64,000 nt of DNA from Gammaproteobacteria bacterium (GCA_963422205.2 CAXMWX010000001.1:128001-192000); one strand, 5' to 3'; shown: positions 14,203 to 24,072, numbered from the stretch's first letter. The notes: generated from the sequence alone by a model not told the origin. Program-made: numbers and translations.

Positions 14203-14988
14203 CTATTCAATGATCAACACGGACTCATCACCCGCCTCAACATCAAACAACTCATCGTAGTCCTCACTTGGGGGGTTGCCGTCATGCACAAGGAATTTGC
14301 GTCGCTGCAAGAAGGCCTCACGGGTAAACGTATACGGATCAATAGACGCCTCATCGACAAACTCAGACTCATCCAGCAGGTTGGCACGGCTGTTGATCAG
14401 GCTTAATACGGTCAGTGGCAGGAAGCTCAGGCCACCAATGTATGTGATCGGATTGGTTACATAACTGCTGCCATAGTTTGGCACGTTGCGGGCGGTGTTC
14501 AACCCCATAAGCGGTATATTCAAATAAGCCCCTTGGTCAACACCCCAAACGGCCAGGGTTTGACCAAAATCTTCCTCATGCACAGGCAGACCCATGGGGG
14601 TGGCGACATCAAATAACCCTCCAATGCCGACAGTGGTATTGATAATAAAACGCAACAGATCAGAGAAACCGATATTCAGCTTGCCCTGCAGAAAACTGTT
14701 CAACACGACATTTAAGTATCTTAGGTTGTCAAAGAAATTGGTGATAACATCACGCACCGGTTCCGGGGTGATGTGGCGATAGCCCCTGGCAACCGGCCGC
14801 ATGAAATTGCGATCCAGGGAGTCATTAAAATTGTACACCTGGCGGTTTGTCTTCTCATAAGGGTCGTTATTGACTGTTCCGTCCGGGCTTTTGGTCGTCG
14901 CACAACCTGACAGTAATACCGTTGCAATCAGCATCGCTGGCATACACCTTAACCATCCGGCCCGGGCGCCGGCCAGGGTTGTTTTCAT
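14203..14988 (-). CDS. mlaA: VacJ/MlaA family lipoprotein
   Basis: Lipobox LLSGC, DPYEKTNR, NTTVGIGGLFDVA, EDFGQTLAVWG, DPYTFTREAFLQRR. Start at ATG 14988 preferred. Confidence 0.9.
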   Translation of the reverse strand: MKTTLAGARAGWLRCMPAMLIATVLLSGCATTKSPDGTVNNDPYEKTNRQVYNFNDSLDRNFMRPVARGYRHITPEPVRDVITNFFDNLRYLNVVLNSFLQGKLNIGFSDLLRFIINTTVGIGGLFDVATPMGLPVHEEDFGQTLAVWGVDQGAYLNIPLMGLNTARNVPNYGSSYVTNPITYIGGLSFLPLTVLSLINSRANLLDESEFVDEASIDPYTFTREAFLQRRKFLVHDGNPPSEDYDELFDVEAGDESVLIIE

Positions 14989-15061
14989 TCTCTGTCCCTC
15001 ATCGTTATTTTGCAGGCTGTTCATGTTATGCACTGAAGTTATGCGCCGGGCCACAGGCGCA

Positions 15062-15703
15062 TTACTCTACAGGCTTGGTCATCGTCCTGGCGTTTTCCTC
15101 CAGGGCATGAACCTTTGCTGCAAGTTTATCACGCAACACATTGTAACCGTTTTCTTTTAGAACGGAAGTGTATTCGGCTCTTTTCAGCGACAGATCACTG
15201 ACTCCGTTTGCGGTGACATTAATAATCTGCCATTGCCCATGGGTCGGCTGCAACAGATAATCCAGTGTCACAGATGGCTTGCCGGGCCGCCGTAACTCCG
15301 TCTTAACCCGCAAGCGACCGCGTTTTGCCCTCTCCGTGGTATTGATGTGAAATGACTCCCCATCATAGCCGGCGAAACGAGAGGCATAGGTGGCGGTGCT
15401 TAACTGCTGAAACAAGCGGACAAACCCTTCCTGCTGGGCCTCATCCAGCCCAGCCCAGTGACGGCCCAGGACAACCTCTGCTATGCGTCTGGAATTAAAA
15501 TGCGTGGCGATCACAGGCTGCATGATCTTAACCCTGCCATCATAACCCAGAACATCCGCCTGCTGCATGATTTCCAGCAGGGCATTGTGCAGCGTGGTGA
15601 CTGTCAGGTTAGCCGCCTCATTATCTGCCTCGCTATCTGGCAGGGACTGCACCTGACCGGACAGGCAAAGCAAAACAAGCAGCAGGGGTAATGATGGCAG
15701 CAT
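15062..15703 (-). CDS. hpnM: MlaC/Ttg2D-family periplasmic lipid shuttle, HpnM-like by context
   Basis: Signal peptide, VLGRHW, TYASRF, WQIINVTANGVSDLSLKRAEY; lies in hpn cluster. Start uncertain (15703-15763). Confidence 0.8.
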   Translation of the reverse strand: MLPSLPLLLVLLCLSGQVQSLPDSEADNEAANLTVTTLHNALLEIMQQADVLGYDGRVKIMQPVIATHFNSRRIAEVVLGRHWAGLDEAQQEGFVRLFQQLSTATYASRFAGYDGESFHINTTERAKRGRLRVKTELRRPGKPSVTLDYLLQPTHGQWQIINVTANGVSDLSLKRAEYTSVLKENGYNVLRDKLAAKVHALEENARTMTKPVE

Positions 15704-15827
15704 TGAGATTGGCTGGCCGGGCAGGTGCTGTTTAAGGGGCGAAGTAAAAAAAATCATGGGCAAAAATCACGCGTTGTTTTGTATGTGCTGACAAGTTCTG
15801 ACCCGGCTTGTTCAAAAATTATGCCGG

Positions 15828-21642: not shown

Positions 21643-21656
21643 GCGGCAGATCGTGA

Positions 21657-23336
21657 TCAGGACTGGCCGTGGGTAAAGTCGGCTGCCTTGTCAAGATCAT
21701 CGAGCGTGTTCACATCCAGCCAGTGACCGTTGATGTAATGCACATTGACCGTCTTGCCGCCAGCCAGCAGGTGGTTGATGAGATCAGGCAGGCTGAGTTG
21801 CCGATAATCCGGCTGTTGTTGCAGCTCGGCTATCGCGGCTTCGATCTGCGCTCTGCCAGTGGCGTTGACCTTGAGCATGCCTATCCAGCGGCCTGAAGGC
21901 TCGCCGCTGTCCAGTTTTTTCCTCTCGGCAATGTGTTTGAGTGTCACCTCGGCCATGAATAATGCGCGGTCATCTTCCTGGCTGCAATAGGCATAATCCG
22001 GCGGGTCGCTGACGGGGACATGCCGGGCGGAATCAACCACGATGACGATATCGCCCGTACTTTCCAGCAGGTCGCGCAGGATATAACCACGAAATAACAG
22101 ATCGCCATAGGTGATGATCATATCATCGGTGAATTTGTCCAGCGCCGAGGCCAGGCTCACCAATTCGCCCGTGTCCTGATAATCTTCATTAATGCACAGA
22201 TCAAACCCCGCCGCGGCCAGCTTTTCTGCCTTATAGCCGGCTATCACGGTAACCGCCGTGACAGATTGTTCTCTGAACTCATCAACCAGCCGCCTGATCA
22301 ACGGCACGCCGCCGATGGTCAGCATGGCCTTGGGGCGATCTTCGGTCAGCTCATAAAGAGAATGACCGCGGCTGGCGGCAAGCACCAGTGCCTGTGTTTC
22401 GGTGGCCGGGTTGAGATAGCGCTCCTGGGCGCGGCGTAACTCATCTGCCCCCTGTAGTGCAAAGATGTGATCAACGCTGGCGATCTGATCTTCAATACCG
22501 GTTAATGATTGCTCGGCCATGATCTGCTGGCTGATGCTCTCCATGCTTTCAATCGAACTGCGGATCATGTGATTGGCCCAGATCACCAGGCTGATCCCCG
22601 CCTTGCGAAAGACCGCGGTTGGGGTGCTGTAGTACTTGGTCGGCACGATGACAACAGGGCAGCGATTATCCCAGGCGTTGGCGAAGGCGATGATCTCATC
22701 CGGGCGCGAGCGCTTGCTGTGGATCAGGATCGCATCGGCACCGGCCTGATGATACGCCTCGGCCCGGCGCAGTGCCTCGGCCAGGCCCCAGCCGGCGATC
22801 AACGCTTCGATACGCGCCACGATGCAAAAATCATCATCACGCTGGCTGTCTTTGCCAGCCTTGATCTTGCCGCAAAACTCATCGATGTCGGCCAATGGTT
22901 GTCGCTTGCCATCGATGAAGCTGTTGGTCTTGGGAAACAGTTTGTCCTCTATGCACACCCCGGCAATATGGCGCTGTTCCAGCTTGCACACTAGCCGCCG
23001 CATGTTATTGAAATTGCCATAACCGGTATCGCCATCCAGCAGGATCGGGATGCTGGTGGCATCGGACATGAACTCCAGCATGTCGATGATCTGTGTCCAG
23101 CTGGCCTCGTTGCTGTCACGCACACCGAACTGGGCCGACAGCGCCAGGCCGCTGGCCCAGATCCCCTTAAAGCCGGTGCGCTCTACAATTTTTGCCGATA
23201 TGCCATTGTGTGCTTCCAGGATAAATTCCAACTCCTGTGAGGCGAGCAAGGCATGTAACCGGGCTGATCTCGATAATTCGGGCGGCCGGGTTTTCCTGGT
23301 CTTGTCGGGTATATGATTAGAGACAGGATCAGGCAT
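21657..23336 (-). CDS. aepX: Phosphoenolpyruvate mutase fused to a C-terminal nucleotidyltransferase (PntC-like)
   Basis: PepM signature [10 protein letters not shown] (EDK-X5-NS), [16 protein letters not shown]-terminal LAASRG...RPKAML...YGD NTP-transferase domain. ATG 23336 overlaps the upstream stop. Confidence 0.95.
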
Positions 23337-24072
23337 GGAATCTCTCCAGCACCTCTGTCTGTGCTCTCTGTACATCTTCCGGGAAGTCGATTTCAATCCA
23401 CGGCAGGCCGGTAATGTTCTCATAGTGAAACTGTTCAGGCTGGCCAAGCACAAGGGCGCGAATCGCCTCCTCATGCGGTTCATTGACATGCCCCTCATCG
23501 ATACGGCGTTGCACCTGTTGTAATAACTGTGCGGCGAGCCTGCCGTCAAAGCGGAAAAAACCGACGGACTCGCCTTGTATATCCCAGCGCAGATGGCCGT
23601 CTATTTGCTTTCGCAATTCCACGATGCGATCAGCGTGTATACAGATTTTTACCGGCTCATCACCGGCGGCGAAATGCTCATCCAGCAGCAGACAGTTACG
23701 GTGCTGGCTATGAATCAGACGCTGCAAAATTTCTGTATGATACAGGACATCGGCATCCATGAGGATAAGGTCGGTTGCCGCTGCCAGTATATCTCTGGCA
23801 CAGTACAGGCTGACCATGCTGCCTTGCGTGTAGTTGGCGTTATAAATCGTCTGGATTGTTATATCGATAGTAAGCCCGGCGATCGCCTGCTCGATCGCCT
23901 GCTGCTGATAACCGGTGATGAGATAAACCTGCCTGATCCCGCCGTGCGCCAGGTTCTGGATATGCCGTTCAAGCAGCGTCACACCATCGAAGGCCAGTAA
24001 TGCCTTTGGCTGATCCCGGCCTGCCTGACCCAGGCGCTCGCCACGACCGGCAGCGAGTATGACGGCTTTCAT
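23329..24072 (-). CDS. Phosphocholine/phosphonate cytidylyltransferase family (LicC/PntC-like)
   Basis: [42 protein letters not shown]; first gene of the aepX operon. Confidence 0.88.

Follow-up and report, generated by a model that had tools for sequence, protein, structure and literature searches.

A phosphonate operon beside hopanoid genes in a gammaproteobacterial genome and its possible part in making a phosphonate-bearing hopanoid

Hopanoids rank among the main lipids of bacterial membranes and serve as geological biomarkers; phosphonates form a large pool of phosphorus in the sea and in soils. Genes for the two lie side by side at positions 14203-24072 of the DNA described here, a stretch of 64,000 nucleotides from Gammaproteobacteria bacterium (GCA_963422205.2 CAXMWX010000001.1:128001-192000) that we call the window; its genome is referred to as G000. 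In this block, an operon for phosphonate synthesis, which encodes a phosphoenolpyruvate (PEP) mutase (PepM, or Ppm), stands next to hopanoid-tailoring (hpn) genes. Judged by its gene content, the operon is a reduced copy of the published "Group 1 phosphonolipid" or "Burkholderiales_CDP-OH" cassette, and we propose, as the best explanation of the observations presented below, that it provides the head group in a phosphonate-hopanoid system whose genes are dispersed. According to Li and Horsman 2022 (PMC8942020), 318 of the 882 RefSeq ppm neighbourhoods (36%) belong to the Group 1 family, which makes it the commonest PEP-mutase gene-cluster family, its product never having been characterised. 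The text of that paper contains no occurrence of "hopan". For a Nitrosococcus cluster, it does say of the genes for squalene synthase and cyclase that they "hint at a possible phosphonoterpene", and passages of two other papers, the first of them cited there, report an antiSMASH "phosphonate-terpene" call in N. oceani (PMC7285500) and terpene genes linked to the mutase gene in Acetobacteraceae (PMC8776678). The idea of a phosphonate-hopanoid is already in print as passing speculation; new, as far as our literature searches go, are a transferase, its gene fusions, the position of HpnL next to the cassette and how widely the association recurs.

Two further bodies of work bear on the locus. The relevant sections of Rice et al. 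2019 (PMC6697681) describe fusion to a PF12804 nucleotidyltransferase as the commonest Ppm architecture (33% of Ppm proteins) and two PntC enzymes that were shown to make the cytidine monophosphate (CMP) conjugate of 2-aminoethylphosphonate (AEP), CMP-AEP. On the hopanoid side, the passages of a 2025 survey (PMC12583986) that deal with the hpn genes assign no established function to hpnA, hpnB and hpnL, report that these three genes are absent where hpnH is lacking (for hpnL, the statement concerns alphaproteobacterial genomes), see no additional candidate genes around hpn clusters, and name as known tailoring enzymes HpnI/HpnJ/HpnK (cyclitol ether) and HpnO (aminotriol).

Open reading frames (ORFs) were called in the window and their products searched against Pfam and NCBIfam profiles. 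An initial annotation of this DNA had listed eight genes in the block, mlaA-hpnM-hpnB-hpnH, dxs and NT1/PepM-NT2/Ppd (NT1 and NT2 being two nucleotidyltransferases), and all eight were recovered in place. Its description of one contiguous block held for the genes but not for their transcription, since they fall into three units, with dxs opposite in direction to both operons. The phosphonate operon begins with NT1 (23329-24072, minus strand), a stand-alone PntC-like nucleotidyltransferase of 247 residues that starts with the ATG at 24072 and matches PF12804 with 63.9 bits. There follows pepM, fused at its C-terminus to NT2 (21657-23336, minus strand; 559 residues); the longest pepM ORF reaches 23549 and overlaps NT1, and the gene probably starts at the ATG at 23336, with an 8-nucleotide overlap with the NT1 stop. 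The mutase scores 397.2 bits with TIGR02320 (cut-off 319.55) and has at residue 130 the EDKxxxxxNS-type motif that, according to the sections cited above (PMC6697681), sets Ppm apart from other isocitrate-lyase-family proteins; the NT2 domain matches PF12804 with 52.7 bits. The last gene, ppd (20485-21642, minus strand), encodes a phosphonopyruvate decarboxylase (TIGR03297, 417.6 bits; cut-off 312.5) with the thiamine-diphosphate motif GDG...N at residue 266. Among proteins of solved structure, the best relative of NT1 is 6pd1, a Treponema PntC-aminotransferase (E 1.2e-10), with LicC (1jyk) next at 1.3e-6, and that of NT2, queried as a whole domain, is LicC (1.7e-9), 6pd1 reaching just 3.5e-3. 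The likeness of NT1 to a solved PntC makes CMP activation of the head group, which the initial annotation had suggested, plausible. The operon contains no aminotransferase gene, a lack that the initial annotation had overlooked, ppd being followed after a gap of 15 bp by the end of the convergent dxs gene, and no transferase gene was found in the operon or anywhere else in the window. A promoter-like site upstream of NT1 (24350-24377, minus strand; TTTATA-16-TATAAT, 10/12 matches) is a consensus match only, from promoter and terminator scans whose yield of 13 is close to what shuffled sequence would give (7.4 and 9.2), and an Rfam scan of the window placed no riboswitch or regulatory RNA in the block.

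The hopanoid operon comprises hpnH (16964-18184, minus strand), hpnB (15828-16964, minus strand), hpnM (15062-15763, minus strand) and mlaA (14203-15054, minus strand). HpnH, the adenosyl-hopene transferase, a radical S-adenosylmethionine (SAM) enzyme, is clear from its score (TIGR03470, 536.8 bits; cut-off 225.05) and from the CNLACAGC form of the CxxxCxxC motif. The HpnB-like family 2 glycosyltransferase (GT2) falls slightly below its cut-off (TIGR03469, 359.5 against 379.25 bits); its place beside hpnH is conserved, and the HpnB proteins of relatives score 379-385 bits. HpnM, an MlaC-like periplasmic lipid-binding protein (TIGR03481, 191 bits; cut-off 160.1; PF05494, 131 bits), begins with a hydrophobic, signal-peptide-like stretch, and MlaA (PF04333, 227 bits) has an LLSGC lipobox, both recognised by eye. 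The dxs gene (18520-20469, plus strand; TIGR00204, 872 bits) is separated from the divergent hpnH by 335 bp. It is the single dxs match in G000, and mlaA is the sole MlaA homologue found there by tblastn. Because each is single-copy, we regard both as housekeeping genes, and the possibility that they are dedicated hopanoid paralogues was rejected.

The genes shc, hpnG and hpnN were looked for elsewhere in the genome, and all were found, hpnG as an hpnG-like gene. Together with a squalene-synthase-like gene, they indicate that G000 is, at the genome level, a hopanoid producer. The shc gene is alone on another contig (G000:C5:193623-195539; 756 bits), among unrelated neighbours: immediately upstream is a 507-residue ORF with an adenine-specific DNA methyltransferase domain (L082:10762-12285, equal to G000:C5:195761-197284), and downstream a 327-residue ORF with no NCBIfam match. 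The other genes form a second hopanoid cluster on the window's own contig (G000:C3:307408-314547), approximately 156-160 kb from the phosphonate operon, in the order hpnL, squalene-synthase-like gene, hpnG-like gene, hpnN, CDPOHPT, hpnA. HpnN (962 bits with TIGR03480; cut-off 751.85), HpnA (505 bits) and HpnL (220 bits; cut-off 195.65; with an LPG_synthase_TM domain) exceed their cut-offs, and the HpnG-like protein (165 against 187 bits) and the squalene-synthase-like protein (120.6 bits) fall below theirs. CDPOHPT is our name for a small CDP-alcohol phosphotransferase (G000:C3:312935-313555; PF01066, 41.9 bits; cut-off 22). The gene shares an ATGA with each of its neighbours, the hpnN stop running into its likely start and its stop into the hpnA start. 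The motif D(x)2DG(x)2AR(x)8G(x)3D(x)3D, the signature of CDP-alcohol phosphotransferases, is intact in it as DxxDGxxARx8Gx3Dx3D (DHTDGELARLTGRMSQFGHAYDLLSD). There are four PF01066 genes in G000, and CDPOHPT is not among the two best-scoring; its only solved relatives, AF2299 and IPCT-DIPPS (4mnd, 4o6m), are very distant (E 2e-4 to 3.5e-4). Embedded between hpnN and hpnA, CDPOHPT is a better candidate for the transferase than HpnB, which the initial annotation had put forward; it was missed there because it is located outside the window. The "two phospholipid genes" of PMC8942020 are presumably CDPOHPT and HpnL.

One AEP transaminase of G000 scores above its cut-off, an unlinked PhnW-type protein (G000:C7:26474-27613; 457-490 bits). 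The gene right after it encodes a 383-residue ORF with no Pfam or NCBIfam match (L083:11466-12617, equal to G000:C7:27466-28617), which might be a partner enzyme in phosphonate metabolism. In tblastn searches with a 40% length filter, G000 yielded no hpnI, no hpnJ and no second CDPOHPT, nor any match to a cyanobacterial PhyH-type protein or to a CDPOHPT-HalD fusion from Pandoraea, the HalD part not having been queried alone.

The evidence that most directly connects CDPOHPT with hopanoids comes from natural fusions. Among 74 clusters of longer CDPOHPT homologues, the transferase is joined to a HalD-like oxygenase domain in 60, to a PF03706 protein in 8 (both of those tested are HpnL, at 326 and 330 bits against a cut-off of 195.65), to HpnN in 5 and to a nucleotidyltransferase in 1 (P0074). 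With TIGR03480 (cut-off 751.85), the HpnN parts reach 930-988 bits, and HpnN comes first in four of these fusions and last in one. In G013, a relative from the window's own family, hpnN and CDPOHPT are in one uninterrupted reading frame. The catalytic signature was intact in all nine fused proteins tested of the 74. Of all the evidence, fusion to HpnN in two independent domain orders argues, in our opinion, most strongly for a transferase that works on the cargo of HpnN, and the fusions to HpnN and HpnL tie CDPOHPT to hopanoids.

From the identities of the enzyme families, the coupling of genes in operons, the recurrent linkage, the fusions and the pattern of loss, we infer a pathway with AEP as the head group in G000, CMP-AEP as the donor and a hopanoid polyol as the acceptor. 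PepM would convert PEP to phosphonopyruvate and Ppd would convert phosphonopyruvate to phosphonoacetaldehyde, from which a transaminase, in G000 presumably the unlinked PhnW-type enzyme, would produce AEP; in most relatives, an AEP transaminase gene directly follows ppd. NT1 and/or NT2, as PntC/LicC-like proteins, would then form CMP-AEP. Gene context and fusions suggest that the acceptor is an extended hopanoid, which may be bacteriohopanetetrol (BHT) or ribosylhopane built by Shc, HpnH and the HpnG-like enzyme, that CDPOHPT links the aminoethylphosphonyl group to one of its hydroxyls, and that HpnL flips the resulting charged lipid. The LPG_synthase_TM domain, which HpnL carries, forms the flippase part of MprF. 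HpnN would export the product, with HpnM and MlaA as possible further carriers. Because no PhyH/HalD-type oxygenase was found in G000, the predicted head group is plain AEP, and the predicted product, AEP-BHT, would be C37H68NO6P with [M+H]+ at 654.486. We would put the chances of the central steps, transfer of AEP from CMP-AEP to an extended hopanoid, flipping by HpnL and export by HpnN, at about even. A wider proposal, that Group 1 cassettes in general make a hopanoid polyol with an aminoethylphosphonate or hydroxy-aminoethylphosphonate head group and not a glycerophosphonolipid, that CDPOHPT works with HpnN, and that HpnL is a charged-hopanoid flippase, is more tentative, and we hold it at somewhat less than even odds.

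Of the best 80 loci encoding relatives of PepM-NT2, 52 belong to uncultured Gammaproteobacteria, 26 to cyanobacteria (mostly Nostocales) and 2 to Pandoraea. The tblastn tables of their gene context drop matches below 30-50% of the query length (one table, for superclusters, is unfiltered), so that short or truncated genes are under-counted. NT1 is present in 52 of 52 gammaproteobacterial, 24 of 26 cyanobacterial and both Pandoraea loci, and an AEP transaminase gene (AEPT) follows ppd in 34 of the 52 gammaproteobacterial loci. At least one hpn gene occurs in 31 of these 52, with hpnH in 28; 15 of the 21 loci lacking an hpn gene are shorter than 15 kb. The cassette directly adjoins hopanoid-cluster genes in eight more distant gammaproteobacterial loci from metagenome-assembled genomes (MAGs; L036, L037, L045, L046, L050, L052, L056 and L079), five of which (L045, L046, L050, L052, L056) also carry dxs-hpnH-hpnB-hpnM-mlaA. 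The fullest order, sqs-hpnG-hpnN-CDPOHPT-hpnA-hpnL-NT1-PepM/NT2-Ppd-AEPT-dxs-hpnH-hpnB-hpnM-mlaA, is seen in L050, and shc is upstream in the superclusters L046, L052 and L056. One contig titled as a Planctomycetota MAG (L003) has the synteny pgi-kinase-NT1-PepM-Ppd at 69% identity to the gammaproteobacterial family; its PepM also groups within that family on the PepM tree, and the contig is probably mis-binned.

Outside the Gammaproteobacteria, the hopanoid neighbours of the cassette are different ones. Both Pandoraea loci have hpn genes at the cassette, in the order CDPOHPT/HalD-like oxygenase fusion, HpnL (356 bits against 195.65), NT1, PepM/NT2, Ppd, AEPT, dxs, hpnN, hpnM (MlaC-like), ispH and hpnH, with shc approximately 3.3 kb further. 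Among the cyanobacterial loci, CDPOHPT is found in 19 of 26 and an hpn gene in 10 (hpnI in 8, hpnJ in 7, hpnA in 4, hpnH in 3). The example of L047 begins with hpnJ (819 bits), a 286-residue ORF, an ABC exporter, hpnI (366 bits), a B12 radical-SAM gene and CDPOHPT, and continues with a PhyH-family gene, NT1, PepM/NT2, Ppd, AEPT, a gene for a Rieske protein, hpnH and hpnA. The PhyH-family oxygenase of L047 resembles methylphosphonate hydroxylase, at a score (208 bits) below the cut-off. Oxygenases of this kind occur in 2 of the 26 cyanobacterial loci, L047 carries the Rieske oxygenase in addition, and a B12 radical-SAM protein with DUF4070, weakly similar to PhpK-type P-methyltransferases (77 bits), occurs in 12 of 26; such extra genes (L047:6648-8285 and L047:8917-9678 in that locus) point to a further-tailored head group where they occur. 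A tree of PepM-NT2 with 93 rows places the sequences from cyanobacteria and Burkholderiaceae within those of Gammaproteobacteria, and Pandoraea and other Burkholderiaceae form one clade beside the gammaproteobacterial superclusters. The tree was a quick build with a midpoint root and thus shows no direction of transfer, and the gammaproteobacterial MAG L056 carries a Nostocales label in it by mistake, which partly explains the 2 changes counted for Nostocales. The linkage that the initial annotation had mentioned between pepM and hpn genes is borne out by a survey: it is conserved in relatives, as described below, and recurs in distant lineages with other gene orders.

We scored 150 genomes of Burkholderiaceae, the family that includes Pandoraea, for PepM and HpnH, with one more genome (G184) left out of the counts. 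Both were present in 64, PepM alone in 1, HpnH alone in 15 and neither in 70. The PepM of the one PepM-only genome is unfused and 302 residues long, and there was no genome with a fused-PepM cassette lacking HpnH (0 of 64). Fourteen Burkholderiaceae cassettes unlinked to hpnH were fetched, and 12 of them hold the full core of CDPOHPT, oxygenase, HpnL, NT1, PepM/NT2, Ppd and AEPT; among these 12, hpnN and hpnM are adjacent in two and dxs in one. HpnL adjoins the cassette in Pandoraea and in 12 of these 14 further loci. A phylum-wide sample of 401 genomes contained 7 CDPOHPT positives, too few for a statistical test. All five strong positives have both HpnH and PepM; of the two weak ones (~1e-16), one has HpnH without PepM and the other has neither.

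PepM and HpnH were also searched in 61 genomes (G000 and 60 relatives), 37 of which, G000 included, belong to the family of the window. In this family, the two genes are on one contig within 10 kb in 18 genomes, present but apart in 7 and in assemblies too fragmented to judge in 8, and 4 genomes have no PepM above the cut-off; linkage was seen also in 2 genomes from two other families. In one genome with the genes apart (G011), PepM is approximately 3.5 kb from sqs-shc-hpnG. No family genome with a fused-PepM cassette lacks HpnH (0 of 33). The cassette appears as a clean indel in a housekeeping backbone, pgi-kinase-cassette-dxs-hpnH: G002 and G007, which have no PepM, show an unbroken backbone pgi-kinase-dxs-hpnH-hpnB-hpnM-mlaA from which just the cassette is absent, with 124 bp between the kinase gene and dxs in G002. 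Because the cassette is simply missing there from an intact backbone, synteny within the family by itself proves little. Five family genomes have no full PepM (four none, and G035 a truncated match of 198 residues). CDPOHPT was not found in four of the five (G002, G010, G021, G035), and NT1 is absent in four of the five, G007 having a 29%-identical homologue elsewhere in its genome. The CDPOHPT of G007 (L103, G007:C1:420584-421147) has a 4-residue deletion in its signature (ARx4G, not ARx8G) and is perhaps a relic in decay. Many gammaproteobacterial relatives have a second, paralogous CDPOHPT (38-40% identical), upstream of NT1 or after hpnA; it was matched in L036, L037 and L046 and also in G013 (L099:5045-5608), where the last Asp of the signature is replaced by Gly.

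Several observations weigh against a hopanoid product. The acceptor of CDPOHPT is not fixed by the computed evidence, and the hopanoid polyol is an inferred one; CDP-alcohol phosphotransferases normally take glycerolipid or small-alcohol acceptors. The absence of an aminotransferase and an oxygenase from the operon makes the head group in G000 uncertain. Two nucleotidyltransferases, and two transferases in many relatives, have no explanation in the model. The substrate of NT1 might not be AEP but a sugar-phosphate of the hopanoid, as produced by the HpnG phosphorylase. G007 keeps a transferase gene without PepM. Within the DNA examined, 16 of the 26 cyanobacterial loci show no hpn gene, and, of the seven family genomes in which PepM and HpnH are apart, six have none within ~6-10 kb of PepM. 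PepM is within 9-12.5 kb of hpnH in just 16 of the 64 Burkholderiaceae genomes that have both, and 9 of the 14 unlinked Burkholderiaceae loci have no nearby hpn gene other than hpnL. The linkage within the family may be a single inherited event, and both relatedness and genome size confound the association seen across genomes. Finally, our literature searches found no description of a phosphonate-bearing hopanoid.

One could envision, as the strongest alternative, that the cassette makes an ordinary phosphonolipid, with AEP on diacylglycerol or another non-hopanoid lipid, and that the hopanoid genes are co-regulated with it or share export and flipping functions (HpnL, HpnN, HpnM/MlaA) in envelope remodelling; the initial annotation, too, had allowed for a co-produced lipid as the acceptor. 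The published name "Group 1 phosphonolipid" implies this, and it is favoured by the classical substrates of the PF01066 family, the nature of the closest solved relatives of CDPOHPT (AF2299 and IPCT-DIPPS) and the nine Burkholderiaceae loci in which the cassette is accompanied by no hpn gene except hpnL. It does not readily account for a transferase that occurs as a fusion with HpnL and, in either domain order, with HpnN, whose gene in G000 overlaps its neighbours hpnN and hpnA by ATGA, and whose fused-PepM cassette was never seen without HpnH in the 64 Burkholderiaceae and 33 family genomes. We consider an ordinary phosphonolipid unlikely, though a serious competitor.

A second alternative is that there is no functional tie in G000, that the phosphonate goes to a glycan, a protein or a soluble product, and that the synteny was inherited from one ancestral insertion. 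The behaviour of the cassette as a clean indel between the kinase gene and dxs, among the housekeeping genes pgi, dxs, mlaA, rng and yhdP, fits this alternative, as do the single-copy status of dxs and mlaA, the six family genomes with the cassette away from any hpn gene, and the lack of a transferase gene in the window itself. Against it, the cassette recurs beside differing hpn genes in cyanobacteria (hpnI, hpnJ, hpnA, hpnH), in Pandoraea (hpnL, hpnN, hpnM, hpnH, shc) and in the gammaproteobacterial superclusters; the immediate hopanoid neighbours are not the same in the three lineages. By a rough estimate, chance contact of a 20-kb neighbourhood with a ~20-kb hpn set is expected in ~1% of cases in a genome of 3-8 Mb, and the terpene-mutase linkage in Acetobacteraceae and Nitrosococcus, in the reports cited at the outset (PMC8776678, PMC7285500), is independent. 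We regard the absence of any tie as distinctly improbable.

The weakest alternative, attachment of the CMP-activated phosphonate by HpnB, has very little probability left and was rejected, for although HpnB has no established function in the survey passages cited above (PMC12583986) and adjoins hpnH in the window and in 26 of 52 gammaproteobacterial loci, it belongs to GT2, a family that uses nucleotide-sugar donors, keeps its place next to hpnH in four of the five relatives that have no full PepM (G035 with its truncated match among the five), is missing at every one of the 26 cyanobacterial cassette loci and at the two from Pandoraea, went undetected in the other 14 loci of Burkholderiaceae (40% length filter), and gives way to a dedicated CDP-alcohol phosphotransferase that accompanies the cassette instead. 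The overall reading of the initial annotation, a CMP-activated phosphonate head group on a hopanoid, is accordingly supported in part: the linkage and the pathway genes stand, CMP activation is plausible, export through HpnM and MlaA may occur, and HpnB as the transferase finds no support.

The block is flanked by housekeeping genes, yhdP and rng on one side and, on the other, pgi and a gene for a Ser/Thr kinase with a cyclic-nucleotide-binding domain. The genes yhdP (1321 residues; PF13116, 765 bits), rng and mlaA are consecutive at 8576-15054 of the window (minus strand), so that the RNase G gene is flanked by two envelope-lipid transport genes, yhdP and mlaA, the latter adjoining hpnM. The kinase gene (24386-25681, plus strand) is divergent from NT1; the same kinase adjoins NT1 in 25 of the 52 gammaproteobacterial loci, and duplicates of it are frequent around pgi. 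A regulatory role is conceivable, as is simple membership of the backbone. At 12-2483 (minus strand), a BsoBI-type restriction endonuclease gene (PF09194, 450 bits) is next to a DNA methylase gene, in a segment of 41% G+C as compared with ~55% for the remaining window; this is probably an acquired restriction-modification island. The sole RNA gene detected in the window by the Rfam scan is a tRNA-Arg (CCT) at 39652-39728 (minus strand).

The possible synthesis of a phosphonate-hopanoid would join two gaps that match each other: in the sources cited at the outset, hpnA, hpnB and hpnL have no established function (PMC12583986), and the most abundant PEP-mutase cluster family has no product (PMC8942020). 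If these two gaps are one, then there would be a new class of triterpenoid lipid with a carbon-phosphorus bond in Burkholderiaceae, heterocystous cyanobacteria and uncultured Gammaproteobacteria, providing outer membranes with a charged hopanoid that resists phosphatases. A concrete enzyme set would be in hand for it, existing liquid chromatography-mass spectrometry (LC-MS) data on bacteriohopanepolyols could be searched for a new biomarker mass, and HpnL would gain a long-missing function as the flippase of charged hopanoids.

Among known systems, IPCT/DIPPS and AF2299 share with the proposed pathway the logic of a head group that is activated by a nucleotidyltransferase and then joined to an alcohol by a transferase in the membrane. 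They are only very distantly similar, and the present system presumably uses a CMP-phosphonate as the donor and a lipid as the acceptor. NT1 and NT2 are, like PntC and LicC, PF12804 proteins by their profile matches, NT1 being nearest to the Treponema PntC (Tde-PntC, 6pd1) and NT2 to LicC (1jyk); unlike those systems, the operon has two nucleotidyltransferase copies. HpnI/HpnJ/HpnK and HpnO, as summarised in the survey, resemble the proposed system in that they decorate the C35 polyol, cluster with hpnH, hpnG and hpnN and occur in some producers only; no phosphorus-containing head group is listed there among their products, and G000 has neither hpnI nor hpnJ. The phosphonoterpene clusters of Nitrosococcus and Acetobacteraceae have, as here, a PEP mutase gene next to squalene, hopene or terpenoid genes, with no product assigned; these reports are one-sentence speculations drawn from antiSMASH or BiG-SCAPE, and they name no transferase, fusion or mechanism. 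The closest system is the Group 1 phosphonolipid cassette. Relative to it, the set in G000 is dispersed and reduced, with no AEP transaminase in the operon and no oxygenase, and its transferase and HpnL are not beside ppm but in the distant hpn cluster. What G000 has in common with Group 1 is the fusion of Ppm to a PF12804 domain, the second PntC-like nucleotidyltransferase, Ppd, the CDP-alcohol phosphotransferase and the LPG_synthase_TM protein, and the Pandoraea and Burkholderiaceae loci show the same core.

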